A DNA stretch of 26,055 bases from Clostridia bacterium (lineage in GTDB: Bacteria > Bacillota > Clostridia > Oscillospirales > Acutalibacteraceae). Both the position numbers and the translations under genes were made by a program. This document shows positions 3,690 through 24,067 of this stretch, one piece after another. The stretch is taken from NCBI GenBank assembly GCA_017502965.1, contig JAFVTZ010000174.1:1-26055 (forward strand). The letters run 5' to 3'. The notes beneath the pieces are model-generated. The model made no database searches, had not been told where the DNA came from, and saw only the letters and a list, made by a program, of their open reading frames with translations. Position 1 is the stretch's first letter. Every line of letters starts with the position of its first letter.

Positions 3690-5990
3690 TTAATTTATGA
3701 ATGCATCTGCAAGAACTTTCTTAAGTCTTACAATATCTCTGACATCAACAAAACTGTCGCCGTTGATATCGACATCCAAGCCGCCTTCAGCATCCATAAG
3801 TCCTTTACGAAGATTTACAAGGTCAGCATTTTCATATTCTTCAAGATAGTCGATATTGCCAAAATAGCAAACCTCTGACGGTGTTGCTTCGAGCAGATAA
3901 AGTACAAGTTTAGCAGTGTTTTCCTGTGTTTCTTTAAGAACAGTGGAAGTGTTTATGAATTCACCCCAACCCCATTCTGTTGCATAAGAAGTGAAAGGAA
4001 TAACAACTGTTCCCTCGAAACCTGCAGGGAGAAGAACAGAACTCCAGGGATTAGACTCGATAATATGGGATGTAATATTTCCGTCTTTATCGATAAGATA
4101 TACAACACCGCCGATACCCGGCTGATAAGCGTTATCATTATCTGCAAAATAGTTTGCTCTGAGATAGGTCTTCTTTGTAGAAGCACTGCAGTCAATATAG
4201 AAAGAAATGGCAGTCTGGTCTGCACTGGTTACATTAGGAAGACTTGCATTTGTGATACCGATAGCGGATTTTGTATAGTATGTAGCTTCACTCTCATCTG
4301 TAGCCTCGGTTTCGATATTAAACTGAGCGGGTGCTGTAAATTTAAGCATACCGTTTTCTACAGAGAAATTATCAAGACTTACATTTGAAGTATTACCGTC
4401 TGCCCAAGTACCGAGTACAGAACTGTTTATTTCAAAACCGCTGTAAGTACGGATATTTTCAGAAATATGGTATTTTGAGTAGGTATAATCTGCAACAGGA
4501 ACAGGAAGCTCGCTGTTAGTGAGGAAACCAAAGTCGTCGTAGGTTATAACGCCGCCCTTATCCGCAAAATCAATATTTCTTACATCAATTGAAACAGAAT
4601 AGTTATTTATATCATCTGTAACAAAAAGATCGGTTGTTTTGCCGTCATAAGTATACTCACCAACTGTAAGATTCTTTAATGACTCAAAAGGAATTACAAC
4701 AGTTCCTTTGAATCCTGAAGGCATAGAAAAGGTCGGCCAGTTATCAGTTCTGACTGTAAGTGAATCTACAGAGCCGTCAGCATTAACAAAATAAACCGGA
4801 CCGCCGGAAACTATAAAACGGCGTACATAGTCATTTTTGCTGACATTTGTATTCTTTACGTTATAGGTAATCTGGAAAGCAGGTGCAACAGAAAGTGCTG
4901 ATAAATCCACATCGAACTTTAATGCCTCAAAGTTTTCGGTTATAGGATACTTAAGTTCTGCAGTAGAGCCGTAATTAAGATTATCTGCTGTCCATTCTTC
5001 GTTTGAAAATTCATGACTCCAAACGCCGTCTGCAACCGACATAGACGGAACACCTTTGCCGTTACTTGCCCAGCTCGAATAAACAACCGATTCAGCATTG
5101 CTGAAATCCTCTGCAATATACTCATATTTATAAGTATCCGAATAATTAGTAGCTTCAGAAACCCACTGGATATTGCTGAAACTCAAACTGTCGCCTACTG
5201 CCATACCGCCCTTGAAATTAAATTGAATAGAAACAAGACTGCGGTGAGTTTGTGAAACATACCAACTTGCAGGTACGAGTTTTGAAAAATCGCCGTTCCA
5301 AGCGCCCGATTTTGTTTCGGGGTCTACATAGTTATTATAACCCTCTACAATACCGAACAAGGATTCGGGAAGATAAAGAGTACCTTTATCGCCCTTGTTT
5401 ATATAGAAAGGAGTGTTGTGCCATTTACCGTAAGTACCGTTTGTTTTTCTTGTTTCAACTGAAGGATTCGGATTTTCGTCAGTAGCATCAGGCAAGAAAT
5501 AATACTCCGAAGCTGTAAGAGCATAAATTGTCTGCTCACGGTTTGATACAACAAGCTGACAAGCTTCATCATTATTAAGTCCCGAAGCATCTATATGAAC
5601 TGCAATATAAGAGGTATTTTCCTCTGTAAGAGACTTGAATAGTAACATTGTATGAACGTCTTTATTGTCCTGTATTTCCTCGGTTGCAGGAGCATTTACA
5701 GTGGCTTTTCCCTCAGTAACTACAAGGGTTGCCGCAGTCTCACTGCCGAATCTTGCATAATCCTCAGGGGCGGTTGTGACACCGTTATCCCAGCCTTCAG
5801 GTTCTCTTGTTAAGGACTGGAAAGTATTGGCATCTTTTGGGAAATTATTTGCGGGCTTATATTCAACATAAGTCGGAAATTCAGTTTTACTAAGGGATAT
5901 ATCCCAAGCTGCCGAAGCACCGAAAGACATCGGCAAAGCCGCAACCATAACTAAAAGCGCGAGTAGAATGGAAAGTATGCGTTTTTTCAT
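3690..5990 (-). CDS. Secreted 766-aa protein with three tandem ~210-aa putative carbohydrate-binding beta-sandwich modules and a C-terminal degenerate dockerin-like domain
   Basis: Signal peptide MKKRILSILLALLVMVAALPMSFGASA and RBS AAAAGGAG. Internal repeats: GGPVYFV..PSGFKGTVVIPF, GGVVYLI..PAGFEGTVVIPF and YYFL..KGDKGTLYLP. The modules end in SFSNIQWV, TYDDFGFL and YFGNIDYL. The C-terminus has DINGDSFVDVRDIVRLKKVLA. Confidence 0.85.
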   Translation of the reverse strand: MKKRILSILLALLVMVAALPMSFGASAAWDISLSKTEFPTYVEYKPANNFPKDANTFQSLTREPEGWDNGVTTAPEDYARFGSETAATLVVTEGKATVNAPATEEIQDNKDVHTMLLFKSLTEENTSYIAVHIDASGLNNDEACQLVVSNREQTIYALTASEYYFLPDATDENPNPSVETRKTNGTYGKWHNTPFYINKGDKGTLYLPESLFGIVEGYNNYVDPETKSGAWNGDFSKLVPASWYVSQTHRSLVSIQFNFKGGMAVGDSLSFSNIQWVSEATNYSDTYKYEYIAEDFSNAESVVYSSWASNGKGVPSMSVADGVWSHEFSNEEWTADNLNYGSTAELKYPITENFEALKFDVDLSALSVAPAFQITYNVKNTNVSKNDYVRRFIVSGGPVYFVNADGSVDSLTVRTDNWPTFSMPSGFKGTVVIPFESLKNLTVGEYTYDGKTTDLFVTDDINNYSVSIDVRNIDFADKGGVITYDDFGFLTNSELPVPVADYTYSKYHISENIRTYSGFEINSSVLGTWADGNTSNVSLDNFSVENGMLKFTAPAQFNIETEATDESEATYYTKSAIGITNASLPNVTSADQTAISFYIDCSASTKKTYLRANYFADNDNAYQPGIGGVVYLIDKDGNITSHIIESNPWSSVLLPAGFEGTVVIPFTSYATEWGWGEFINTSTVLKETQENTAKLVLYLLEATPSEVCYFGNIDYLEEYENADLVNLRKGLMDAEGGLDVDINGDSFVDVRDIVRLKKVLADAFIN
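3700..3830 (-). other. Dockerin-like C-terminal domain: first Ca2+ loop missing, second intact
   Basis: Helix ADLVNLRKGLM, then a linker, then the canonical D-x-N-x-D-x-x-x-D-x-x-D loop DINGDSFVDVRD and helix IVRLKKVLA. Confidence 0.65.
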
Positions 5991-6068: not shown

Positions 6069-9000
6069 TCAAGAAAAGAAATCTTTTTCTGCCTGAGATT
6101 TAGGGCCGATTACAATCTCATCAAGAACCGGAACATTGATATTGAATACAACGGTATTCTTTTCAACCTTGAAATCGATTTCGGTGAGTTCCAAAGCGCG
6201 TGTACCGTCAATATTCTGCAGCACTCTGTAAACCGTGATATCTTTTGCAGAAATTCCGAATTTCGAAAGGTCAACAGCAACATTTCCGTTATATACACCG
6301 TTGTCTTTGCCGTTACCTGAAGGATAATAACCTCTGCCCTGATTTATAAAGGGAATAACGAGGCTTTTGCCCTTGATATTCGGAGTGTATTCAATATATT
6401 TTGCGTTTTTAGAGAATGTGACCGCAGTATTTTTCGCAAGATAAGCGGTCAGAACTTCTCTTGTAACATCGGCATCGTAAGAGGTGAGATATTCGCCCGA
6501 GAACAGCGTTACATTACCATCGCCAAACTCTGAATAAAGAGCCAGCGGGTCGCCGTTTTTATGGCGCTCAATAATTTTAACCTTTTTAGCAGACTCAGTA
6601 CCTTCTATATATGTATAAGGAAGGCCGTCAACTATCTTTTGTTTAGTGAGAGAAATTCCTGCGAATTTATCCACAACCAATTTACTGTTTTCATCTTTAA
6701 ACTGACCTGCAGCAATAATCAGGTTGCCGCCTTTTTTAACATACTCTTCAAGTTTAGCAATTTTCTCTTTTGTAATGGTCTGTCCCCTACCGCAATACAC
6801 AAGAGTATCATATTGCATAAGTTTGTCGAGAGATGTTGTGTCAGAAATGATGTTAGCAGGACCGTATGGAGTACCTGTGAAGATTCTCTCCATATTTGTA
6901 CGCCCGCTCTTATCACAGTAATCAGCAAAGATAACATCAAGCAGGGTGTAATCGTTCCAATAGGTATCAGAAATCGGGATTGACTTACCTGTAAGGTTAG
7001 TCTTGGCTGCCGCTGCCCATTTTGTGGGAACATTTTCCATTTTGAATGCATTGAACATTTCTGCCCAATAAACATTATCGCTTTGCTCCCAGGCGGCAGA
7101 CAGTCCTGCGCATCTGAACCAATCGTCACCCTCACCGCGGACAATGCCGATATTTACAACTGTTTCACCAACCTCAGGGTGTGTTTTGGCGTAACGTATT
7201 CCGTCAAGCCAGGCGGCACCTTGAGTGCTGACATTTTTGCCCGAATCACTGGTACAGGGAATTTCGTTGAAAATTCCGTCAACACCGCCGTGGAAAAGGC
7301 TCAGAAAGCCTGTAAGCACAGCGTCATTACCGAAACCGTACCAATAATCACGGTCATAAGTGTCCCAACCTACACCGTATTCCATATCAAAGGAGTTTCC
7401 CGCTCCCCTTGCAGAAGCAAGGGTAATATTATAACTTGAACGGTTTGTTCCCTTGCTGTAAATCAAGTCAGCGCCTGCATTTACAAGGTTAGTGAGGTCG
7501 AAACCTGCACGGCTTGTATTATACATAATACATGCCTGCTCGCGCTTATCTATCATAGATAACAAAGTGTTATTTGCGCCTTTGAGATATTTCTGAATGG
7601 TATAATAAGCATTCATACCGCCCTGTTTTACACTCTCATATCCTGCATAAGTGCCGAGTACGGTATTTTCTATGCCCTTATCCCACATTCCGAACCAACT
7701 TTCCATTTCGCAGAAACAGATTGTAACCTTTCCGTCAGGAACGAGTTCCAGCCAGCGATTTGCAACATCTGCGGTGGCTTTAAGTCCTTTTTGCAAGGTT
7801 TCGGGAGACTTGTTTGCCATTGTGATAAGTTGGGTAAACTCATAATCACCGCGGTCATTAAGAGGCATAACGGTGTAAAGTTTCATATGCTTTACTCCGA
7901 TACTTTTTGCTCTTTCTGCCCATTTTTCGAAATTCTGTGTTCCTTTATTCTGATGCGGAATAAAGGTAAGTGAATCAATTTTCAGCCTTTTTGCCGCTTC
8001 AAGGCAATCATCATTAAGAATGTTAAGGCACAAATCGTAAACAATAGTATCGCTTACTTTATAATCAACCTTGGGGATACTTTCGATACTGTCAATATCC
8101 ACCGAATCGGCTATACTGCTTCTGAGCAGTTTTGCACCTTCTGTTTCACTGCAAGAAATAAAATCGGTTTTTTCATGCAGGTCATACTTTGTATAGTTGG
8201 GGGCTTTGAGCATATCTGTACGCTGACAGACAATACTTCTGTCGGTCCAGTTTCCGTTGGGCGGCGGCAGTATTCTGCGGCTGCAATTGGTACTCTTTCC
8301 CCTTTCTATACCTGTTTCACAGATAAATCGGATTCTTACATATTCATCCTGTGTCGGCACATATTCAAATACAATACCGTTTTTATGAGTGTAAGAATCA
8401 TAATTGTCATACGCCTTAGTCCATACAATTTTATCGTTTGCGGTGATTATATCAGGGTCTTCACCAACAAAAGGCATATTTACTGAGAACTGATAACCGT
8501 AACCCTTTTCAAGTTTCCATTCCCAGGTAATTTCAAAGCCGAAGTAACCTACTTTTCCTGATTTCGGTCTTCCGCTTAAATGGAAATAACTTGAATTCGG
8601 ACAGTAAACTGTCGGTATAGCGTTATAAGAGAACACCTTTGCATTATTGTACCACCACATTTCGGAGATACCCCATCTGTATCCGCTTGGAGACTGACCT
8701 TTCCATTTTTCATAAGAAAATGTAGGGTCAAGGCGGTAATCGTGCTCTACCCGTTCAATATCGCCACTTACAGTTTTATACACACAAAGGTCGTCAAGAT
8801 AAGATGTGCCGCTGAGGCAGTTGATATAATCCGTACTTTCAGAGTTGCCAAGGAAGGTTATCGCAACCTGCTTGTTCTCCCCTGAATCAAACACAAAACT
8901 TACTTCATCCCAGAAATCGTCAAAACCGCCCGCGGTCTGACCGAGCAAAGCGCCTGTATCGTTGCCCGAAACCTTGATTGCGGGCGACGAAAGGTTAACT

Positions 9001-9455
9001 GATTTGAGTTTTGCGGTGAGAACATATCTTGTATTGCTTTCAACATTTAAAAGGTATTTTGCATAGGTCTGTGATTCTCCTGCTTCTGCCTGATTAAAAC
9101 GAAGTGCGGCAGAACCGTCAACCCCTACACCTGACTGAACGGTATAGACATCGCTCCACACACCCTGCTCGGACCAATTATCTGCAGTTATTGCACCGCC
9201 TTTATTAACTGCTGCGCCTTCGAAATCTGATTTTTTAATCAGATTTTCTCCTACAGCACTGTAAGGCGAACTTTTGTCAAACAAAGGACTGTAATTAAAG
9301 GTTTCCTTATAAGGGGCTATCCATTCGCCCTTATTCATTGCGATTTCAAAATCGGATAAATTATTACCTTTATTAACCGATGCCTTTTGTGTATCAGAGC
9401 AGGCGGTAGCAGTTATCAGGAAAAGACATAAAAGACAGCATAACAGCCTCTTCAT
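6069..9455 (-). CDS. Putative lipoprotein glycoside hydrolase (~1128 aa): CBM4/9/16-like domain, second beta-domain, putative TIM barrel, GH42-type trimerisation (GATase-like) domain, C-terminal beta-domain
   Basis: Start moved from 9500 to the ATG at 9455 because AAAGGAG lies at 9466-9472. Signal with lipobox-like ITATAC. CBM-like GENLIKKSDFEG..GVDGSAALRF..VESNTRYVLTAKLK..YLDDLCVY. Alternating beta/alpha region ~8050-7260. GH42_M-like QYDTLVYCG..IAKLEEYVKKGGNLIIAAG. Confidence 0.7.
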   Translation of the reverse strand: MKRLLCCLLCLFLITATACSDTQKASVNKGNNLSDFEIAMNKGEWIAPYKETFNYSPLFDKSSPYSAVGENLIKKSDFEGAAVNKGGAITADNWSEQGVWSDVYTVQSGVGVDGSAALRFNQAEAGESQTYAKYLLNVESNTRYVLTAKLKSVNLSSPAIKVSGNDTGALLGQTAGGFDDFWDEVSFVFDSGENKQVAITFLGNSESTDYINCLSGTSYLDDLCVYKTVSGDIERVEHDYRLDPTFSYEKWKGQSPSGYRWGISEMWWYNNAKVFSYNAIPTVYCPNSSYFHLSGRPKSGKVGYFGFEITWEWKLEKGYGYQFSVNMPFVGEDPDIITANDKIVWTKAYDNYDSYTHKNGIVFEYVPTQDEYVRIRFICETGIERGKSTNCSRRILPPPNGNWTDRSIVCQRTDMLKAPNYTKYDLHEKTDFISCSETEGAKLLRSSIADSVDIDSIESIPKVDYKVSDTIVYDLCLNILNDDCLEAAKRLKIDSLTFIPHQNKGTQNFEKWAERAKSIGVKHMKLYTVMPLNDRGDYEFTQLITMANKSPETLQKGLKATADVANRWLELVPDGKVTICFCEMESWFGMWDKGIENTVLGTYAGYESVKQGGMNAYYTIQKYLKGANNTLLSMIDKREQACIMYNTSRAGFDLTNLVNAGADLIYSKGTNRSSYNITLASARGAGNSFDMEYGVGWDTYDRDYWYGFGNDAVLTGFLSLFHGGVDGIFNEIPCTSDSGKNVSTQGAAWLDGIRYAKTHPEVGETVVNIGIVRGEGDDWFRCAGLSAAWEQSDNVYWAEMFNAFKMENVPTKWAAAAKTNLTGKSIPISDTYWNDYTLLDVIFADYCDKSGRTNMERIFTGTPYGPANIISDTTSLDKLMQYDTLVYCGRGQTITKEKIAKLEEYVKKGGNLIIAAGQFKDENSKLVVDKFAGISLTKQKIVDGLPYTYIEGTESAKKVKIIERHKNGDPLALYSEFGDGNVTLFSGEYLTSYDADVTREVLTAYLAKNTAVTFSKNAKYIEYTPNIKGKSLVIPFINQGRGYYPSGNGKDNGVYNGNVAVDLSKFGISAKDITVYRVLQNIDGTRALELTEIDFKVEKNTVVFNINVPVLDEIVIGPKSQAEKDFFS

Positions 9456-10827: not shown

Positions 10828-12273
10828 TTACCGCTTTTGCCTGCGCACATCTGTAGCGCTGATACCTGTCATACGCTTGAAAACGCGGGCAAAATACGGA
10901 TAATCACCGTAACCGCAGACCTCTGAAATCTCCCTTACCGAAAGATTTGTTTCAGAGAGCATTTTTACTGCCATATTTATTCTGCATTGGTTTACATATC
11001 CCGTAAAATTCTCACCTGTATACTTTTTGAAAATTTTACCTAAATATTTTTCACCTATTCCAAACCTCTGCGAAATGGAAGAAAGGTTTATAGGCTCCTG
11101 AAAATGTTTATCAACATAATCCTTTATCAGCGGCATTACAGAATGTTTTGCGCTGACAGAATGTTCGTCCTGCTGTATAAGTATTTCATTGATACAGCAG
11201 TGCAGGTGATTCTGAAGTTCCAATATGCCCGAAAATCTGCTTTCGATATTTTCCGCTGTCGGAATATAATCGAAATTACGCATTGTATAAAGCAGATTGC
11301 AGGTTATAAGAACTGTATTGCTTATAAGGATTATTTCATCAATATTGAACTTGATTTCGGTTGTGAATATGCTGGTTATAAGTTCGTCAAGCCGATGCAT
11401 ATCCTTTTCTTTAACTATCACCTGAATACGCCGCATAATAGAATTGAAAAATTCTATATTGCTTTCTTCATAAATGCAGGGTTTGTTTCTTCCTGTGATA
11501 AAAAAGTTAAAAAATGCCAGTCTGCTTTCATTAACGGCATCGCAAACCTCTGCAACCGAAGTTTTAAGCCCGCTTATTCCAAGCCTTAAATCCCCGAAAG
11601 TTTCTTTAAGTCTTCTGACAGCACCGTCATACTCAATATAAACATCGGTGAAAACTGCAGTTATAATATAATCTTCAAACATAGAAAACTGCAAAATTTC
11701 GCCGTTGCCTTTAAGTTTATTGCAGAATTCTTCATTTTTCTGAGAATTTTCGAACTTTGCGGACATTACCGTAAAGCAATAATTATACTGCTTTTTAAAG
11801 CCGAGATACTTTGTATAAAGTGCCTGACCGTCAGTATTATTTAAATCTTTTATTCTATCAAAAAGTTTTGATATATCGGGGAATTCACGGCTCTTTTCAG
11901 AATCAATGGACTGACCGATTCTTACAAGAGTTTCTTTAAGGCTTTCTTTGTCTACGGGTTTTACGAAAAATTCATCAACTCCGAGCCTTACTGCTCTGCG
12001 GGCGTTTTCGAACTCCATAAATCCGCTTATTATAATAAACCTTATCTCGCTGTTATGTTTCTTTATTCTCTCAATAAAATCAAGACCGTCAATATTGGGC
12101 ATCATTATATCAACAAACACAAGGTCTGCCTTGTTGTTCTGAAGATAATCAAGAGCCTTTTGGGCGGAAGTGAATGTGCCTGCTATTTCATAGCCGAGTT
12201 CTGACCAGTCACAAGCCGCCTTGAGGCTTTCTATTGCCCATATCTCATCATCAACTAATACTACCCTTTTCAC
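10828..12273 (-). CDS. Two-component response regulator, receiver + AraC HTH (YesN-like)
   Basis: GTG start. Receiver motifs VLVDDE, LVFVDIMMP (phospho-Asp), IIISGF and FVKP. C-terminal AraC HTH: FQEPINLSSISQRFGIGEKYLGKIFKK..EISEVCGYGDYPYFARVFKRMTGIS. Confidence 0.95.
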   Translation of the reverse strand: MKRVVLVDDEIWAIESLKAACDWSELGYEIAGTFTSAQKALDYLQNNKADLVFVDIMMPNIDGLDFIERIKKHNSEIRFIIISGFMEFENARRAVRLGVDEFFVKPVDKESLKETLVRIGQSIDSEKSREFPDISKLFDRIKDLNNTDGQALYTKYLGFKKQYNYCFTVMSAKFENSQKNEEFCNKLKGNGEILQFSMFEDYIITAVFTDVYIEYDGAVRRLKETFGDLRLGISGLKTSVAEVCDAVNESRLAFFNFFITGRNKPCIYEESNIEFFNSIMRRIQVIVKEKDMHRLDELITSIFTTEIKFNIDEIILISNTVLITCNLLYTMRNFDYIPTAENIESRFSGILELQNHLHCCINEILIQQDEHSVSAKHSVMPLIKDYVDKHFQEPINLSSISQRFGIGEKYLGKIFKKYTGENFTGYVNQCRINMAVKMLSETNLSVREISEVCGYGDYPYFARVFKRMTGISATDVRRQKR

Positions 12274-15200
12274 AGTTTCACACCTGATTTTCTTTTACGG
12301 ATAATAATTACAGCAGTAACTGCCGCACCCAAAACAAGCGCTACAGCAGCCGCAATTATAACTATCAGTAAAATGCTGACGGGATTTTTGAACTCAATAT
12401 TACCCGAATTATCAACGCTGAAATCCTTTGAGGTATAAATTTCAACATACTGCCCGAATTTATCTACAGCCGAAACCTGAACGGCATATTCGCCTGCTTC
12501 AAGTCCTGTTACAGTAGCAGTTATCTTATCAGAATCTACCTGCGAGAAAAGTTCATAACCGTCATCAGTTTTGCGGTAAACGATTACAGTGTAACCCGCC
12601 GCATTTTCACACGCTTCATAAGAAATACTCAGTTCAAACGGAGCGGTTTGTTCAAGAGATTTTATCTTATCAACTGTATAACCGTCTTTAACTACAGGCT
12701 GACTGTAATTTCCTTTCAAAGCCGAGATTTTTTCTGCTTTCATAGAAAATCCGTCATATCTGACCATAGGCTCACCGTCATCATCAGTGATAACCGTGCC
12801 GCCCTCTTTTTCGGTGTTGGGGTCAAATCTTGCATCATAAGCACCGATGTCGAAAACTGTGGGGGCAACTGCCATAAGATTCTGACGCTCGTTATAATCA
12901 TTACCCGAAATACAGACTCTGAGTGTATCTCCCTTTTGCATTGCAACTTTAAGCTCAGGGAAACTAACCTCTAAATTCTCGCGTGAAAGTTCGGCTGAAC
13001 TCTCATCCTCGGGCCAGATTTTCTTACCGTTTTTAGAAATCCAGACATTCATCGGATTCTTAAAAAGTTCATTGGAAAGGTCGGCGGCTATTGCAATACT
13101 GTCAAACAACTCGTTTGCTCTTAGCAGATATGTTCCGCTGTTCGGAGCAATAAAGGTGACACCGCCTATAGCATTTTCACCCCAAGGGCTGTGACCTGCC
13201 ATAACCTTTATAGCGGCAACACCGTTTACCTCGCATATACAAGCCTGCGGCATTTTTTCGCTATAAGTATTATAACCCCACCAACCGCCGTTTACTATTA
13301 CGCTTATAGTATCGGTATCGTAATATTTAGGCGAGCCGTTAGCGTAAGACAAACCGTCATAAGTGTACTGATATTTCCATACAGAGTCGCCGTAACTTAA
13401 AGCCACACCGCCGTTATCTGAAAGGTCGGGGTCTGCTTTCATAAATAAAGCAGAAAGTATTTCAACCGCATCATATCTGTTTGCTACCATAAATGTAACA
13501 GTAACTACAGAAGACTTTCCGATACTGTCCGAAAGTTTTATTCTGCGGACATCAATGCCTTTATAACCTTTTGAGGGAGTATATGTCATAATTCCCTTTT
13601 CATCTATTTTAAGGTTGGCTTTCGGGTTTGAATCCAGAACATCAAACTTAATTGCTCTGCCGTTTGGATGAATTGCCTTTAATTTTACTGTGAACACCTT
13701 ATCAGGCTCTAAAATATATTCACAGTTTTCCGCTGATGGAGCATGGTCCACAGGGTCAGGCTTCACAAGAGAGATAACAGGTGAGAAATAAGCATAAATC
13801 GGAGAAGAAGATTCCTTATTGTCTGTTATCACAAAACGGATAGTATCCTTAGCATTAAGGAATATATTTTCAATAGTCGGGAAAGCGGCAGAACTGTTTG
13901 CTGCGCTTATCTTTACCGAATAAACCTCTTTGTCGTTTACAAGTATAGAGAATTTATATTCCTTGGTTTTATCTGCGGCTACAATATGTCCGTTAACATA
14001 AGTGCCGGGGATATAAATAGAAGCGTTTCGAAGGTCGGGAGTTATGGTATATGTACCCGAGCGGTCGGCGGTAAACACCATTGCCGCCTGCACATCGGTT
14101 GTAGAAACATAAGGAGTGTGGTATCCGCTTACACTCTCAAGACCTACAGCCGTTCTGTTGGCATATTTGAAACTGTAGGACGCGGGAGAGCCTGTATTCT
14201 TCCAGTCATAAGTAGTAAGCGCTGATAAGGTCTCCCAAGCATCACCGTCACCCACTTTAAACTGAGCCGACCAGTTTGTATCAAGGTCTATAGCCTCCGC
14301 GTTTACAATTACCCTGTCACCAAGCTGAACATCAAGACTTGCTTTCAGTTCATCGGGAGTGTATTTAATTACCTCAAAAGAAGTAACTGTTACATTACAC
14401 TGCGCTTTGATTTCGCCGTTTTCTTCGCTGACAGCGTAAACTATAGCATCTCCTTGGTTTACTGTAGTAACCTTACCTGTTGAATTAACCTTGACTACAG
14501 AAACGTCAGAAGATACCCATTTTATATTCTTATTGCTTGCATTGGAAGGCAGAACATTAGCCGAAAGTTGATAGGAAACGCCTTTTGAGAGTTCACAGCG
14601 GCTGTCAGAAATGCTGACAGATTTAACCGGAACATCTACTGCAACAGATGAATCCATCTGCATATCGAAATCGAACTTGACTGTAACGTGACGGCTTGGA
14701 ATCTTGCTCTGTCCGAGAACTTCCAGACGGATAACATCGCCCTTATAAAGTTTTAAATTTTTAAGTGTAGGTATTGCTACGGAACTTGTTTTACTGGGAA
14801 TAAGTTCAATACCTTTGGGGTTATTCTGGGGCCATATAGTTTTGCCGTTTTTGGTTATCCTTACATAGAAAGGATAATCTTCACCCCATTTAACGATATC
14901 TTCAAGAGTGCAGTAACTTGCAAGAGCAAGACTTATGTTTTTGCAAGCGTCAGACGGGCTTAAAGTATACATTCCGTCAGCATCGGCTTTATATCCTGCA
15001 TATACCCAGGAATCTGCATTGTAAGAGCCGATAATTGCATAACCGTCCGAAATATTTACACTCTGCTTTGAGGTACTGCTTCCCTTTTCGTTTGTATCGC
15101 TGGTATAAATAACCGCTCTGGGATTTCCCCAGCCGAGATTCATTGCATACTCAAAATCGGTATAAACACCGTCTGCTAAAGCGCCTGATATAAACTGACA

Positions 15201-17183
15201 GTCGGTAGTGTATTCTGTGAGCACCTTTTCTTTTTCTATCTTATCAAGAGTAGGTTGCCACAAAGATTTAATGAAATTGAGTTTTTCTGCGGTTACTGTA
15301 ACACCACATTCAGCAGAAAAATCAAAGTTTTTGCATTTTGCGGTTATAACTGCTGTACCCGGTGCTACTGCGGTTATAACACCGTCAGCCGAAACTGTTG
15401 CAACAGTTTTATCGGAAGAGGTATAAACCACCTCTTTATCACTTGCAGTCAAAGGAAGAACTGTAGTAATAAGAGCGTGAGTGCCGCCTTTAGTGAGCGA
15501 TACCTGCGAGTCGCTCAAAGTGATTCCTGTAGTTGGAACTGTTGATTTTTCACTTAAAACCTGAATCATCTTGGGGAACAGTACAACCTGACCTTTTTCC
15601 CAGATTTCGGTTACAAGTTCTATTCTTAATGTATCACCCTCGTTCATTTCAAGGCTGTTTATAGTCGGGAAAGGAACTGAGGTGTTGTTTATATTAAGTG
15701 TAGTAGTATGAATCTTGCTGTCATTGAGATAGAAATTAACAACAAGGTCTTTTGTTTTTGCATTTGCATCAGCATTCATATAATTCACAGTAGATGCGGC
15801 AAGTGAAATATTACTTACATCCGATGTGAGTGAATAAATACCGTATTTCGGTGCTGTGAACTGATATGCAGCGCCTTTTATTTCAGCATCCTGTCTGCCA
15901 TAGAAAAGGGTTGAGAAAAACTCACCGCTTGAATAATACTGGCTGACACCTGCGCCGTTGTAATTCACCTGCGAGGAATGGAATTTAATACCGAAACTGT
16001 TATTCCACTGTTCTCTTGTAACCTTTTCGCTGGGAGCATAATCTGTGCCGTTGAAATAAAGTGCCTGCCAGGCAGTTTTGATATCATTGTCTACAGTGGT
16101 CGTAGCCGAAACATCGCCGATTTTTTCAACCGCGGCATCATAAAGGTCTTTTATCTTATAAACAGGAGCATCCTTGTCATAAATTGCAACAACTGTCTCA
16201 GCCTCAAAGCCGCCGTCTTCAGTTTTAACACGAACGGTGGTATATCCCGCTTTTTTGGGCTCTACAGTACCGTCTTCTTTTACTGACAAGATACTCCCGT
16301 CGTCAACCGTATATGTAACATTCTGATTATTTGCTGTGGGAGGTACTATAACGGGAGAGATATTTACAACCTCATCCATACCTATAATATAATTACTGTT
16401 TTTGAAATAAACTTCGCTGACAGAATCGCTCGAATATTCTGTGAGCCAGATTTCAAAGTTTGTGTATAAATTGGTTCTGCCCCAGAATTCATTAGACTCA
16501 AAATAAAAATCAAGAGTTTCACCTTTGGCAAGAGTTACACTGATATCATCTGCAATGTCAGCAGTAACATCGGCATAGTTATTAAGGGTCAGAGTTTTGG
16601 AAAACAGCATTGTCTGCCCGTGCATTATTTTAAATGTCTGTGTAAAATACTCGGGTTTCATACCGCTGTAACTCTGAGGAGAGGTAAGAAGCATTGACTT
16701 GCCACCTGCTCCCGTAACTTCAAGAGGCACTACCTTATATATACCTGATTCAGGTGCTGTGAAAGCAAGTTTTATCATACCTCCGCTCTGACTTGTAGCC
16801 AGACGGCTTCCTACAGAATTTCCGTAAGATTCACTGCAAAGGAAATTACAGTTATTATGATGACCGTTAGTATCTGTGGCTGACAGTTCGGATATATGAA
16901 GATCGTTTTTGGATTTATCTCTCCATGTGCTGTCCATAGGGGCAAGCGTTGCCTCATAATAAGAACCTGAAACATAAAAATCTATACCCGAATAATCAAC
17001 CGTGCTTCGGGCATCTTTGGGTGCATTTACAGCCTTACTCATAAATTGCTCATACGGGTTATAGCGAGCATAATATTCCACGCTGTCATTATTCTGAGTT
17101 GCGGTGGTAGGTATAAAAACCGTTGCAACTACCAACACAAGAATAAGTGCCGTAATCTTTTTGGCAAGCGTAAAGATTTTCAT
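12270..17183 (-). CDS. 1637-aa membrane-anchored cell-surface repeat protein: five uncharacterised ~200-aa beta modules interleaved with three Big_2 Ig-like domains and one cadherin-like domain, then an FN3-like domain and a C-terminal TM anchor
   Basis: RBS GGGAGG and an N-terminal signal peptide. Big_2 motifs (V.P.TA.NK.V.W.SSD..V..V...G.VTAV..G.A) at ~16420-16180, ~15540-15290 and ~14635-14385. Cadherin-like TYTPSKGYKGID at ~13745-13485. TVTGLEAGEYAVQVSAVD (FN3-like). TM ILLIVIIAAAVALVLGAAVTAVIII followed by RKRKSGVKL. Confidence 0.88.
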   Translation of the reverse strand: MKIFTLAKKITALILVLVVATVFIPTTATQNNDSVEYYARYNPYEQFMSKAVNAPKDARSTVDYSGIDFYVSGSYYEATLAPMDSTWRDKSKNDLHISELSATDTNGHHNNCNFLCSESYGNSVGSRLATSQSGGMIKLAFTAPESGIYKVVPLEVTGAGGKSMLLTSPQSYSGMKPEYFTQTFKIMHGQTMLFSKTLTLNNYADVTADIADDISVTLAKGETLDFYFESNEFWGRTNLYTNFEIWLTEYSSDSVSEVYFKNSNYIIGMDEVVNISPVIVPPTANNQNVTYTVDDGSILSVKEDGTVEPKKAGYTTVRVKTEDGGFEAETVVAIYDKDAPVYKIKDLYDAAVEKIGDVSATTTVDNDIKTAWQALYFNGTDYAPSEKVTREQWNNSFGIKFHSSQVNYNGAGVSQYYSSGEFFSTLFYGRQDAEIKGAAYQFTAPKYGIYSLTSDVSNISLAASTVNYMNADANAKTKDLVVNFYLNDSKIHTTTLNINNTSVPFPTINSLEMNEGDTLRIELVTEIWEKGQVVLFPKMIQVLSEKSTVPTTGITLSDSQVSLTKGGTHALITTVLPLTASDKEVVYTSSDKTVATVSADGVITAVAPGTAVITAKCKNFDFSAECGVTVTAEKLNFIKSLWQPTLDKIEKEKVLTEYTTDCQFISGALADGVYTDFEYAMNLGWGNPRAVIYTSDTNEKGSSTSKQSVNISDGYAIIGSYNADSWVYAGYKADADGMYTLSPSDACKNISLALASYCTLEDIVKWGEDYPFYVRITKNGKTIWPQNNPKGIELIPSKTSSVAIPTLKNLKLYKGDVIRLEVLGQSKIPSRHVTVKFDFDMQMDSSVAVDVPVKSVSISDSRCELSKGVSYQLSANVLPSNASNKNIKWVSSDVSVVKVNSTGKVTTVNQGDAIVYAVSEENGEIKAQCNVTVTSFEVIKYTPDELKASLDVQLGDRVIVNAEAIDLDTNWSAQFKVGDGDAWETLSALTTYDWKNTGSPASYSFKYANRTAVGLESVSGYHTPYVSTTDVQAAMVFTADRSGTYTITPDLRNASIYIPGTYVNGHIVAADKTKEYKFSILVNDKEVYSVKISAANSSAAFPTIENIFLNAKDTIRFVITDNKESSSPIYAYFSPVISLVKPDPVDHAPSAENCEYILEPDKVFTVKLKAIHPNGRAIKFDVLDSNPKANLKIDEKGIMTYTPSKGYKGIDVRRIKLSDSIGKSSVVTVTFMVANRYDAVEILSALFMKADPDLSDNGGVALSYGDSVWKYQYTYDGLSYANGSPKYYDTDTISVIVNGGWWGYNTYSEKMPQACICEVNGVAAIKVMAGHSPWGENAIGGVTFIAPNSGTYLLRANELFDSIAIAADLSNELFKNPMNVWISKNGKKIWPEDESSAELSRENLEVSFPELKVAMQKGDTLRVCISGNDYNERQNLMAVAPTVFDIGAYDARFDPNTEKEGGTVITDDDGEPMVRYDGFSMKAEKISALKGNYSQPVVKDGYTVDKIKSLEQTAPFELSISYEACENAAGYTVIVYRKTDDGYELFSQVDSDKITATVTGLEAGEYAVQVSAVDKFGQYVEIYTSKDFSVDNSGNIEFKNPVSILLIVIIAAAVALVLGAAVTAVIIIRKRKSGVKL

Positions 17184-20173: not shown

Positions 20174-21094
20174 ATGATTTCTGAAAAATTTAAAATACGA
20201 CTGAAAGAAACGGCGCATCAGGCTAAACGTGAGGGCGCAGGCTATCTGTTTATTGCCCCCTTTATGATTCTTTTCATTCTTTTCACAGTACTGCCTGTGC
20301 TGATTTCGGTTGTTCTGAGTTTTACTTATTACAATGTGCTTGAAGCCCCGAGTTTTATAGGTTGGGAAAACTACACCCGCCTTATTTTGAACGACGATGT
20401 TTTTCTGCAAGCCGTTAAAAACACCTTTGTTTATGCCTGCATAACAGGACCTGTGGGATACTTTGCAAGTTTTATTCTGGCCTGGCTTCTTTGCGAAATG
20501 GGACCTACTATAAGGTCTATTCTCGTATTCATTTTTTACATACCCTCAATGTCATCAAGTATGTATGTTATCTGGTCATACCTTTTCAGCAGCGACTCTT
20601 ACGGTTTTATAAACTCAATGCTGCTGAAAGTCGGCATAATAAATTCGCCGATACTCTGGCTTCAGAACTCAAAATACATACTTGCAATCATTATTCTTGC
20701 ATCTTTATGGATGTCACTCGGAACATCATTCCTCACCTTTGTTGCAGGTATTCAGAGTTTCGACAAAACCTTGCTTGAAGCAGGCGCTGTTGACGGTATA
20801 CGCAACCGTTTTCAGGAACTCTGGTATATCACCCTGCCCACTATGCGTCCTCAACTTATGTTCACAGCGGTAATCACTATAGCACAGGCTTTTTCGGTAT
20901 CGGATATAGCAATGAACCTTGCAGGTCTTCCCTCTGTAGAATATGCAGGTCACACAATAGTTACCCATCTTCTTGACTACGGTAACATCCGTTTTGAAAT
21001 GGGTTACGCCTGCTCTATTGCATCGGTTCTGTTTGTTATAATGATAACTGCCAATAAGTTAATAACTATGTTTATTAGGAGAATAGGTAAATGA
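20174..21094 (+). CDS. Carbohydrate ABC transporter permease (MalF/UgpA-like)
   Basis: GYLFIAPFMILF..FIGWENYTRL. EAA loop LLEAGAVDGIRNRFQELWYITLP. FEMGYACSIASVLF. About six TM helices. Confidence 0.95.
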   Translation: MISEKFKIRLKETAHQAKREGAGYLFIAPFMILFILFTVLPVLISVVLSFTYYNVLEAPSFIGWENYTRLILNDDVFLQAVKNTFVYACITGPVGYFASFILAWLLCEMGPTIRSILVFIFYIPSMSSSMYVIWSYLFSSDSYGFINSMLLKVGIINSPILWLQNSKYILAIIILASLWMSLGTSFLTFVAGIQSFDKTLLEAGAVDGIRNRFQELWYITLPTMRPQLMFTAVITIAQAFSVSDIAMNLAGLPSVEYAGHTIVTHLLDYGNIRFEMGYACSIASVLFVIMITANKLITMFIRRIGK

Positions 21095-21966
21095 AACTGA
21101 ATATTTTAAAGCGGTATCACCGAAAAAAACTCAACCGCTCAAGGGCAATGACCTTTTTCATTTATCTGGTACTTCTGCTCATTGCCTGCTTTATGAGTTT
21201 TCCTATGGTTTATGCGGTTTCAAACTCGCTTAAACCTATTGAGGAACTTTTCCTCTTTCCCCCTCGCATTTTTGTTATCAATCCAACTTTTGATAACTAT
21301 CTTGACCTTTTTGACATTATTTCAAACTCGTGGGTACCTTTTTCCCGTTATCTTTTCAATACAGTTCTTATCACAGTTATGGGTACACTCGGTCAGGTTT
21401 TCATTTCATCCCTTGCGGCTTACGGACTTGCGAAATTCAAGTTCCCCGGTGTTCAGTTCTGCTTTAACCTTATAGTGTTCTCGCTTATGTTCACCTCTAC
21501 CGTTACCGCAATTCCGAGTTACATAATAATTTCAAAACTCGGCTGGATAGACTCTTATTTACCCCTTATAGTCCCCTTTTTCCAGTCGTCACTCGGACTG
21601 TATCTTCTGAAACAGTTTATGGAATCCTCTGTACCCGATTCTCTCATAGAAGCCGCCCGAATTGACGGTGCTTCCCATTTCAGAATCTATTTCAGGATAG
21701 TTATGCCGCTTGTAAAACCCGCATGGCTTACCCTTATAATTCTCTGTGTGCAGAGTCTCTGGAACTCAACAGGCGGTGTTTATATCTACAGCGAGGAATT
21801 AAAACCTTTGCCTGTAGCCCTCAGCCAGCTTGCAACAGGCACTATTTCCCGAAGCGGAGTGAGTGCGGCAGTTTCGGTGGTTATGCTGGTAGTTCCCGTA
21901 GTTGTTTTCCTGCTTTCTCAGCGTCAGGTGCTTGAAACAATGGCAACCTCGGGTATGAAAGATTAG
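21091..21966 (+). CDS. Carbohydrate ABC transporter permease (MalG/UgpE-like)
   Basis: ATGA overlap with the upstream permease. LAAYGLAKFKFPG, EAA loop LIEAARIDGASHFRIYFRIVMPLVKP, and LKPLPVAL. Confidence 0.95.
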   Translation: MKLNILKRYHRKKLNRSRAMTFFIYLVLLLIACFMSFPMVYAVSNSLKPIEELFLFPPRIFVINPTFDNYLDLFDIISNSWVPFSRYLFNTVLITVMGTLGQVFISSLAAYGLAKFKFPGVQFCFNLIVFSLMFTSTVTAIPSYIIISKLGWIDSYLPLIVPFFQSSLGLYLLKQFMESSVPDSLIEAARIDGASHFRIYFRIVMPLVKPAWLTLIILCVQSLWNSTGGVYIYSEELKPLPVALSQLATGTISRSGVSAAVSVVMLVVPVVVFLLSQRQVLETMATSGMKD

Positions 21967-21976
21967 GGTGATAAAT

Positions 21977-24067
21977 ATGAAAAAGATTAAAAAACTTATA
22001 TGTTTTATCGTTTCGGCGATTATGCTTTTCTCTATCACCGCTTATGCCGAAACCTACCCCTCCTATAACTATCTTGCAAACGGCGAGATAACTTCTGTTC
22101 CTCAGCCTTTTGCCGTAGACGAAATTCTTTATGCCGAAAATTTCGGTGCGCTTTCTTTTGCAGGCGCAAAAGATATTTTCTGCGACAAGGACGGCAATAT
22201 ATATGTTGCCGACACTGAAAATGACAGTATAGCCGTACTTAAAAATGACGGCTCAACCGAAATAATTAAAGGTTTTACTTTAAACGGAAAAACTCAGACA
22301 TTTAATTCCCCGAGAGGAATTTGTGTTATGAACTCAAAACTCTATGTCTGCGATTATGAAAACCACAGAATTGCAATCATAGATTTAAAAACCCGTGAGG
22401 GCAGAGTTATAGAAAATGTTGTTTCCAAGATTTTGGACGAAGATTTTTCCTTTAACCCAAAGGGAGTTGCGGTTGATGAATATGACCGTGTTTACTGTGT
22501 TTCTGACGGACAGTATAACGGACTTATGGTGTTCGAAAAAGACGGCAGTTTCAGCGGATTTGTGGGAGCAAACAAAACATCTCCCAGTATCATAGACATT
22601 ATCTGGCGCAAACTTTCCACAAAGGCTCAGAAAGCACAGCAAAGTATCTCAATTCCTACAGAGTTTTCCTCTGTTACAATTGATAAGAAAAACTTTGTTT
22701 ACACTACAACCTCAACGGTTGATACATATAACCCCGAAGAATCAGAGCCTGTCAGAAAACAGAGCCCCGGCGGAGATAATATACTCAAACATTCTGCCGA
22801 CCTTTACCCCATAGGCGATATAGACTATTCTTACGATTCTGATGCTTTTTCGGGACCATCGCGTTTTTGCGATATTGCCGTCTGGGATAATATGATGTAC
22901 AGTGTTCTGGACCAGACAAGAAACCGCATTTTCACTTACGATTCAAACGGAAGTCTGCTTTTTGTTTTCGGAAGTTTCGGTGAAAACGAGGGTTATTTCC
23001 GCCAGCCTGTAGCACTTACTCTGAACAAAAACCGCCTTTATGTTCTCGACTCCAAAACAGGGGCTATAACGGTTCTTTCGCCGACAAATTATGCCGACAA
23101 ACTTATAACCGCTGTTGATTACACCTCAGAGGGAGATTACAACAGTGCACTGTCCGCCTGGTCAAATGTGCTTGAATATAACACCAACAATGAACTCGCC
23201 TACCTCAATATTTCCACCATTCTTCTCAATCAGGGTGACTATGAGGGTGCTATGGTATATGCAAAACAGGCAAACAACCAAAAGGCTTATTCAGAGGCCT
23301 TTGCTCAGGTGCGCTCAAAATTCATAGGCGAAAATATCGGCGCAATCATAATCGGTGCTATATTTGCAATAATAACCATTTTTATTCTTTATAAACTCGG
23401 CTGTAAATTCAAGGTTTTAACCCGACTTAAAAACCGCTCGAAAACCGTTGCCGCTCTCGATTACGGAAGATACATTTTATATGCTCCGTTTGACGGATTC
23501 TGGGAGCAAAAACGGGAAAAACGGGGAAATATTGCTTCGGGAATAGTTATAATGGTTTTCCTTTTCCTTAGTTTCTCTCTTGCAAGCGCATTTACGGGAT
23601 TCAGTTTCACAACCCCGAAAGACGAACTTACAGAGTTTAACCTTTTACTGGAAATCGCAAAAACAGTTCTGCCAATAGGACTCTGGTGCATTTCAAACTG
23701 GTGTATCACAGCGCTCATAGAAGGAAGCGGAAATCTTAAAGAAATATTTATTTCGACCTGTTTTGCGCTTATTCCTTACACAGTTGCAAGCCTTATTTCA
23801 ACCCTTTTAAGCCATTTCCTCACCCTTGACGAGAAACAGGTGCTCACAATTATCGTGGTTATAGGTCTTGCCTATTCTGCTTTGCTGATAATTGCCGCAA
23901 CCTGCTCGGTTCACGATTGCTCTATGGGTAAAGCGCTTGTAACCATACTGCTAACCGTTATCGGAATGGTGATTATAGTATTTATTTCGGTACTTTTCTT
24001 TAATCTTTTAAATAAATTCTTTGATTTTGCAATCAGCATTTATAACGAACTACGACTCAGAACATAA
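21977..24067 (+). CDS. NHL-repeat beta-propeller + TPR + TM + Yip1-domain fusion membrane protein (~696 aa)
   Basis: ATG at 21977 (GTG at 21968 is the alternative) and a signal peptide. NHL blades DIFCDKDGNIYVADTENDSI, FNSPRGICV..LYVCDYENHRI, FNPKGVAVDEYDRVY and FRQPVAL. TPR-like YNSALSAWSNVLEYNTNNELAYLNISTILLNQGDYEGAM. One TM, then APFDGFWEQKREKRGN and about five TM helices typical of bacterial Yip1. Confidence 0.85.
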   Translation: MKKIKKLICFIVSAIMLFSITAYAETYPSYNYLANGEITSVPQPFAVDEILYAENFGALSFAGAKDIFCDKDGNIYVADTENDSIAVLKNDGSTEIIKGFTLNGKTQTFNSPRGICVMNSKLYVCDYENHRIAIIDLKTREGRVIENVVSKILDEDFSFNPKGVAVDEYDRVYCVSDGQYNGLMVFEKDGSFSGFVGANKTSPSIIDIIWRKLSTKAQKAQQSISIPTEFSSVTIDKKNFVYTTTSTVDTYNPEESEPVRKQSPGGDNILKHSADLYPIGDIDYSYDSDAFSGPSRFCDIAVWDNMMYSVLDQTRNRIFTYDSNGSLLFVFGSFGENEGYFRQPVALTLNKNRLYVLDSKTGAITVLSPTNYADKLITAVDYTSEGDYNSALSAWSNVLEYNTNNELAYLNISTILLNQGDYEGAMVYAKQANNQKAYSEAFAQVRSKFIGENIGAIIIGAIFAIITIFILYKLGCKFKVLTRLKNRSKTVAALDYGRYILYAPFDGFWEQKREKRGNIASGIVIMVFLFLSFSLASAFTGFSFTTPKDELTEFNLLLEIAKTVLPIGLWCISNWCITALIEGSGNLKEIFISTCFALIPYTVASLISTLLSHFLTLDEKQVLTIIVVIGLAYSALLIIAATCSVHDCSMGKALVTILLTVIGMVIIVFISVLFFNLLNKFFDFAISIYNELRLRT

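Follow-up and report, generated by a model that had tools for sequence, protein, structure and literature searches.

A minus-strand gene at positions 6069-9455 of a contig from a Clostridia bacterium of the Acutalibacteraceae (JAFVTZ010000174.1; its 26,055 analyzed nucleotides are called the window here) encodes P0001, which is probably a lipid-anchored surface glycosidase. It would belong to a rare glycoside hydrolase (GH) family that resembles clan GH-A, is unclassified in Pfam, NCBIfam, and the PDB, and carries a glutamate at strand 4 and an aspartate at strand 7 of its barrel. The original prediction had proposed a surface glycosidase of an unclassified or divergent family, and the predicted domain layout, a modeled barrel without a family match, and conserved acidic residues at strands 4, 7, and 8 support that proposal.

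The P0001 gene runs on the minus strand from an ATG at 9455 to a stop codon at 6069 and encodes 1128 amino acids. Its ribosome-binding site (RBS), GGAAAGGAG, lies 9 nt upstream of the ATG, immediately past the stop codon of the preceding gene for a sugar-binding protein. Since homologues from other animal-gut assemblies are 46-91% identical across the full length, and nearly identical DNA occurs in gut and fecal metagenomes from 17 studies, the gene is real and not a spurious open reading frame. The N-terminus of the protein, MKRLLCCLLCLFLITATAC, fits a lipoprotein signal, with a signal peptide that is predicted to finish in ...LITATAC, its last residue being Cys19, the predicted lipidation site. 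Cys19 with Ala or Gly at -1 was present in 14 of 16 aligned family members; P0015 and P0016 lack that N-terminal part. The gene and its predicted domains, all on the minus strand, are as follows.

6069-9455, minus strand: whole gene for the 1128-residue predicted lipoprotein P0001, stop codon at 6069-6071 (translation, RBS, homologues)
9399-9455, minus strand: signal peptide with lipobox and predicted lipidation site Cys19 (predicted from the sequence and the 14/16 conservation)
8769-9251, minus strand: CBM4/CBM16-like beta-sandwich, residues 69-229 (VIA Z 14.7-16.4)
8166-8723, minus strand: second beta-domain, residues 245-430 (AF2 strands across 272-414, all-beta)
7161-8060, minus strand: (beta/alpha)8 barrel, residues 466-765 (eight beta/alpha units in the barrel-only AF2 model)
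6441-7160, minus strand: GH42M-type (class-I glutamine-amidotransferase-like) alpha/beta domain, residues 766-1005 (PF08532 in relatives, hhalign)
6072-6428, minus strand: C-terminal beta-sandwich, residues 1010-1128 (whole-model structural alignments)

This five-domain order, from a domain resembling carbohydrate-binding modules (CBM) of the CBM4/16 type through a beta-domain, the barrel, and a GH42-type alpha/beta domain to a beta-sandwich, comes from AlphaFold2 (AF2) models of full-length P0001 (mean pLDDT 82) and of the barrel alone, the latter built from 74 sequences (pLDDT 95.8, pTM 0.93). Both models place the eight barrel strands at residues 471-474, 495-498, 523-527, 576-581, 641-647, 664-668, 692-698, and 727-731, with a helix after each, and all eight of the strands listed in the original prediction (VYDLCL to GIFNE) fall in this barrel. 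A fold without a barrel had been named in advance as an outcome that would speak against a glycosidase; the models instead gave a confident one.

The flanking domains also match what had been expected. A CBM4/9-like domain had been predicted, and residues 69-229 fit CBM4-2 and CBM16 as well as a porphyran-binding CBM and the CBM of EndoMA1 in VIA, while PF02018 matched this CBM-like region weakly in one relative. The second beta-domain, likewise anticipated, is kept across the family, including the short, CBM-less relatives P0015 and P0016, and its P334 and W345 are almost invariant in 50 diverse members; it is part of the conserved family core. Within the GH42M-type domain lies a helical insertion of ~90 residues (780-866) that bears D835, present in 70 of 75 sequences. 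Structural alignments of the whole model extend to its residues 1116-1122 and to the C-termini of the GH42 and GH164 proteins, and the modeled C-terminal beta-sandwich is equivalent to domain 3 of these enzymes.

Comparison of the full model with known structures gave Foldseek E values of ~1e-19 to GH42, GH164, and GH35, and clusters in the AFDB labeled GH42 or beta-galactosidase matched at E 1e-30 to 1e-17. In VIA, the GH164 enzyme Bs164 was the best match (Z 20.2, 522 residues aligned, model residues 466-1117 against chain residues 36-681), followed by GH42 enzymes (Z 17-19), the GH35 enzyme IaSGT (Z 17), and a GH151 fucosidase (Z 17). When the barrel was compared alone, GH164 (16.3), GH35 IaSGT (16.1), GH79 (15.8), and GH42 (15.7) headed a flat run of GH5, GH53, GH10, GH26, and others down to Z 13.4; the top 15 structural neighbors all belonged to clan GH-A families, and TM scores were ~0.5 in Foldseek and at most 0.68 in the Atlas. 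The predicted overall architecture is thereby of the GH42/GH164 type, and the modeled barrel resembles clan GH-A only generically, lying near no solved family specifically.

Sequence-family searches identified domain 2 and left the rest without a family. Residues 1-860 of P0001 had no match in Pfam, in NCBIfam, or by phmmer against all PDB sequences, and residues 850-990 gave sub-threshold amidotransferase-like matches only (ThuA, ABC_transp_aux, GLMA_2nd, IFT52). A profile of region 436-860 built from 16 relatives found nothing among PDB sequences even at E <= 10, and PDB sequence searches with the protein and two family profiles returned only weak matches in domain 2; no barrel match to Bs164 was obtained by phmmer or with either family profile over all PDB sequences. 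PF02449 (Glyco_hydro_42) was absent from P0001 at E <= 1, from the 16 relatives at E <= 0.1, and from 8 distant members at E <= 0.01, and the same model detected GH42 in 39 of 81 Clostridia genomes, in line with the earlier remark that GH42 signature motifs are absent. The Pfam models for GH35, GH5, and GH98 (PF08306) likewise did not match P0001 or the 16 relatives. The trimerization domain of GH42, PF08532, was found in 12 of the 16 relatives (best E 1.1e-9; top score 38.5 bits against a cut-off of 25.8 bits; profile positions 45-200 matched), which bears out the GH42-type trimerization domain originally placed after the barrel. PF08532 was the sole recurrent Pfam family in the 16 relatives and 8 distant members, and it never occurred there with PF02449 or another barrel family. 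Pfam, NCBIfam, and PDB sequences thus gave no strong match to any recognized GH family, the outcome that would have counted against a divergent one. The barrel is unclassified as judged against Pfam, NCBIfam, and solved structures, a scope that leaves room for a CAZy family lacking a Pfam model or structure, and the literature yielded nothing on "DUF5696" nor any paper describing the P0001 family.

We next considered which residues could form an active site. Clan GH-A enzymes have an Asn before the strand-4 Glu, a Tyr at strand 6, and a Glu nucleophile at strand 7. Residues were counted in the 74 barrel sequences of the family unless 75 are stated, and the candidates that stood out at strand ends, again on the minus strand, were the following.

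7707-7709, minus strand: E583, two residues past strand 4 (E in 69/74; codon verified)
7452-7454, minus strand: K668, end of strand 6 (K in 64/74)
7362-7364, minus strand: D698, end of strand 7 (D in 63/74, never Glu)
7263-7265, minus strand: E731, end of strand 8 (E in 64/74, D in 3, Q in 6)

E583, the first Glu of the C-E-M-E motif singled out at strand 4 in the original prediction, was thus upheld; the residue before it is Cys in P0001 and Pro, Cys, or Ala in relatives, not Asn. The second Glu of this motif, E585, was rejected as a catalytic candidate because it is unconserved (E in 20/74). For strand 7, E692 or D698 had been suggested, and only D698 survived, E692 being unconserved (P in 29 and E in 15 of 75). 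E731 had been placed at the end of strand 8, where AF2 also puts it. K668 had not been among the earlier candidates but belongs with this conserved set, and the loop that follows it is conserved as K-x-I-x-R-Q-N-x-N. Also conserved are R683 in helix 6 (74/74), H759 past helix 8 (70/74), D663, R672, and N676.

The complete E-K-D-E tetrad (E583, K668, D698, E731) was present in 55 of the 74 sequences. In the subclade P0012-P0014 (~48% identical to P0001), it is swapped to N, N, N, and D, with R672, R683, H759, and D835 retained. K668 and D698 are altered together in 7 sequences, D698S/T being accompanied by K668E/Q. This coupled change is the strongest argument for taking the tetrad as one functional unit. 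Since four of the 6 sequences with E731Q retain E583, K668, and D698, E731 looks the most dispensable; E583 and D698 look like the core pair, with K668 tied to D698. Of the hallmarks of clan GH-A, a barrel with a Glu past strand 4 was found (eight units modeled), while a Glu at the end of strand 7 was not. In the models, E583 occupies the acid/base position and D698 the nucleophile position of the clan.

Several observations weigh against a GH-A-like glycosidase. Barrels of the TIM type that are not glycosidases reach similar Z scores (e.g. pyruvate kinase, Z 14), the window holds no recognized glycosidase to define a substrate, and, to our knowledge, a strand-7 Asp together with the lack of an Asn before the strand-4 Glu is unlike every clan GH-A family. 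The remaining points concern the alignment of the barrel. When the 75-member family alignment was compared by hhalign with 16 GH42 proteins taken from Clostridia genomes, residues 436-1128 matched at a probability of 98.3% (E 1.2e-14), whereas the barrel alone gave a non-significant 2.5% (E 0.018), so the detectable GH42 homology sits in domain 2. Both alignments paired E583 with the Glu of the GH42 N-E motif, but hhalign favored an offset of one beta/alpha unit in the register, so that E731 falls on the GH42 nucleophile and D698-x-Y700 pairs with the WDxYP motif of GH42 strand 6.

This shifted register was rejected. The barrel-only alignment is non-significant, and with the shift strand 8 and helix 8 could not be accommodated ahead of domain 2 (~766), since E731 is separated from the domain's first strand (~769) by a single helix (744-756). 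In addition, structural alignments cover the entire barrel one to one (model residues 19-319 against 14-415 of Gan42B, and 22-319 against 1-398 of the Thermus A4 beta-galactosidase), so that the eight beta/alpha units map one to one on those of GH42. Strand 7 was assigned by counting elements in the AF2 models and from these structurally aligned ranges, and, with the shifted register set aside, D698 would end strand 7 and E731 strand 8. The motif W-D-T-Y-D-R (residues 697-702; 7350-7364, minus strand) mimics W-D-S-Y-P-R of GH42 strand 6. Because of this resemblance, profile alignments are drawn into the one-unit shift, and the motif is a trap for motif-based assignment of catalytic residues.

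The P0001 gene lies in a minus-strand operon that encodes, in order, a 1637-residue Big_2 surface protein, an AraC-type response regulator, a sugar-binding lipoprotein, P0001, a 766-residue protein, and a LamG-metallophosphoesterase protein. Next to it, in divergent orientation, lies a cassette for a giant solute-binding protein, two permeases, an NHL-Yip1 protein, and DUF5696. Among the neighbors are the following.

12270-17183, minus strand: 1637-residue Big_2 protein, whose stop overlaps the start of the AraC-type response regulator gene by 4 nt
10828-12273, minus strand: AraC-type response regulator, with no adjoining histidine kinase in the window
3690-5990, minus strand: 766-residue downstream protein, no Pfam match

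A His_kinase gene adjoins a family member in L003 and on the P0025 contig. The C-terminal end of the 766-residue protein (near 3690-3800) holds a single dockerin-like calcium-binding segment, DVDINGDSFVDVRDIVRLKK, and the gene in the equivalent place at L032 has a weak Dockerin_1 match.

The same operon layout surrounds relatives that are 45-50% identical, and P0015 (32% identical) directly follows the permease/NHL-Yip1/DUF5696 cassette and a histidine kinase (L003:1-12652; L004 and L007, both contig CALWUY010000032.1). In two lineages ~30% identical, a GH130 gene (~320 residues) followed by one for a 322-residue HAD-type hydrolase lies near family members (L001:17938-19878; L030:6926-8878), which may hint at beta-mannoside chemistry, and GH79 and a weak GH42 are found beside a family member. 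Sulfatase genes border family members at the positions below, in three contexts that are unrelated to one another (Flammeovirga agarivorans and two metagenomic contigs).

L029:6490-7899: sulfatase gene
L030:15048-16481, 20188-21681, and 22899-23396: sulfatase genes
P0025 contig: sulfatase gene

The equivalent neighbor in the window is the LamG-metallophosphoesterase. A 363-residue gene upstream of two relatives was dismissed as a conserved partner because the two proteins are unrelated. Taken together, the context supports a role in the breakdown of a complex glycan that is possibly phospho- or sulfo-decorated, with which the conserved K668/R672 loop is compatible; the substrate itself is a guess.

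When 1.84 billion representative proteins were searched exhaustively with a profile, only 78 clusters were recovered, indicating that the family is rare. It occurs in Acutalibacteraceae and other Clostridia metagenome-assembled genomes (MAGs), in the Bacteroidota species Flammeovirga agarivorans, where the protein has a T9SS tail, and in an Armatimonadota MAG. The relatives carry only two names in their sources, "beta-galactosidase trimerization domain-containing protein" and "T9SS type A sorting domain-containing protein", and distant members bear LamG, Big_2, sialidase-like CBM, or T9SS tails. Related genomes encode both the P0001 type and a shorter paralogue type (that of P0015; 883 residues, no CBM, ~30% identical). 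One family copy and no GH42 were found in the source genome, a MAG of 1.06 Mb at whose 67% completeness this absence is weak. The window ends within DUF5696, and a second family copy may lie just past it.

The following mechanism would accommodate these observations. The active site would lie on the C-terminal face of the barrel, with E583 serving as general acid or acid/base, D698 as nucleophile or general base, K668 positioning D698, and E731 contributing to substrate binding or acting as a second base. P0001 would thus keep the strand-4/strand-7 geometry of clan GH-A with other residues, x-E replacing N-E, Lys the strand-6 Tyr, and Asp the nucleophile Glu. Presumably co-transcribed with the sugar-binding lipoprotein and the AraC-type response regulator, and facing the cassette for glycan uptake by an ABC transporter, P0001 would probably work at the cell surface, cleaving a complex glycan that may bear phosphate or sulfate groups and releasing products that are then imported. 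More specifically, and only tentatively, we propose that P0001 is the founding member of a new CAZy family that has a GH42-type scaffold and a catalytic Glu/Lys/Asp, acts on a phospho- or sulfo-glycan at the Gram-positive surface, and is functionally tied to the DUF5696/NHL-Yip1 cassette.

The same fold and active site could also serve an inverting, GH98-type enzyme, in which E583 would be the general acid and D698 would activate water together with E731, although we regard this as unlikely. The spacing of E583 and D698, 115 residues, is like that of the catalytic pair Glu361/Asp467 in the inverting GH98 xylanase of Bacteroides ovatus (PMC4491172), and GH98M was the best named lead of a language-model feature search, although its score of 0.88 is under the tool's 0.9 level and makes it a lead only. 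The GH98 structure 2wmh aligned at nearly equal length with a Z of 14.2 and 13% identity, a Z score that dozens of retaining GH-A barrels match or exceed. An Asp, being one carbon shorter than the GH-A Glu, would fit a wider acid-base gap, and two adjacent conserved carboxylates on strands 7 and 8 would suit inversion, but the nearest whole-protein folds (GH164, GH42, and GH35) are all retaining. A search for PF08306 in a sample of 401 Bacillota genomes and in control genomes had no matches. Given the GH98-like spacing of the Glu/Asp pair and the feature lead, the enzyme may be either retaining or inverting.

That P0001 is a non-hydrolytic enzyme on a GH42-like scaffold, acting on a surface glycan as a transglycosylase or, less likely, as a phosphorylase or lyase, seems improbable. 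The GH35 beta-1,2-glucosyltransferase IaSGT is among the close structural neighbors (Z 16-17), but the remaining nearest neighbors are hydrolases. Barrels of GH112 lacto-N-biose phosphorylases appeared in the feature search at a score (0.78) under the tool's chance level, and although K668, R672, and R683, all of them conserved, might form a binding site for phosphate or another anion, an extracellular phosphorylase is unlikely for a lipoprotein. We give still less credence to a non-catalytic surface lipoprotein, i.e. an enzyme-derived lectin that passes substrate to the transporter. Its CBM-like domain would suit such a role, and P0012-P0014 lack all four candidate residues yet remain full-length in the same operon, indicating that the scaffold can persist without the tetrad. 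At the P0012 locus (L032:10001-13348), two GH123_cat genes, a GH3 gene, and a PMM/HAD gene lie downstream, and the subclade looks like an enzyme turned binding protein. P0001 itself, however, keeps the full tetrad, and a catalytic role would be expected to preserve residues at strand ends in this way.

A glycosidase of this kind would matter because new GH families open new substrate specificities. The family, though rare, spans Bacillota, Bacteroidota, and Armatimonadota, and it occurs in gut and marine glycan loci beside sulfatases and phosphoesterases, a setting in which enzymes that act on decorated glycans have yet to be found. A Glu/Lys/Asp site on a GH42-type scaffold would, if true, widen the known range of clan GH-A-like barrels. 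The subclade P0012-P0014 provides a natural control for conversion of an enzyme to a binding protein, and P0001 gives a point of entry to the DUF5696/Yip1 uptake cassette of Firmicutes, so far unstudied.

Among known systems, the GH98 endo-glycosidases (PF08306; 2wmh) share with P0001 a (beta/alpha)8 barrel and a Glu/Asp pair ~100 residues apart, but they lack the GH42M domain, and the likeness is no stronger than to many GH-A barrels. The GH164 beta-mannosidase Bs164 of Bacteroides salyersiae (6t5o, 6t7g) has the barrel, a GH42M-like domain, and a C-terminal beta-sandwich in common with P0001, as well as a Glu at the strand-4 position. At 7-11% identity, this likeness is structural only. Bs164 begins at the barrel, whereas the P0001 family has a conserved beta-domain ahead of it (and P0001 also a CBM), and the ~90-residue helical insertion in domain 2 distinguishes P0001 from Bs164. 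The nucleophile of GH164 is a Glu on strand 7, in contrast with the candidate Asp698 in P0001.

GH42 beta-galactosidases and alpha-L-arabinopyranosidases (PF02449 and PF08532; 4oif, 5xb7, 1kwg) share the three-domain layout, in which the barrel is followed by a PF08532 trimerization domain and then a C-terminal beta-domain, and domain 2 is homologous. They differ from P0001 in active-site motifs: P0001 has C-E instead of N-E past strand 4, no Cys cluster there, and no (L/M)ME nucleophile motif, its strand 7 ending in D698 instead of a Glu. Other barrels are also found on the GH42-type scaffold, namely those of the GH35 enzyme IaSGT (7vkw; Z 16-17) and of the GH5 exo-mannosidase Op5Man5 (7bob; Z 14.6), each 7-12% identical to P0001. 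Since a homotrimeric structure of the GH42 type has been described for a GH5 enzyme (PMC8233224), the combination of a GH42 layout with a non-GH42 barrel has precedents.

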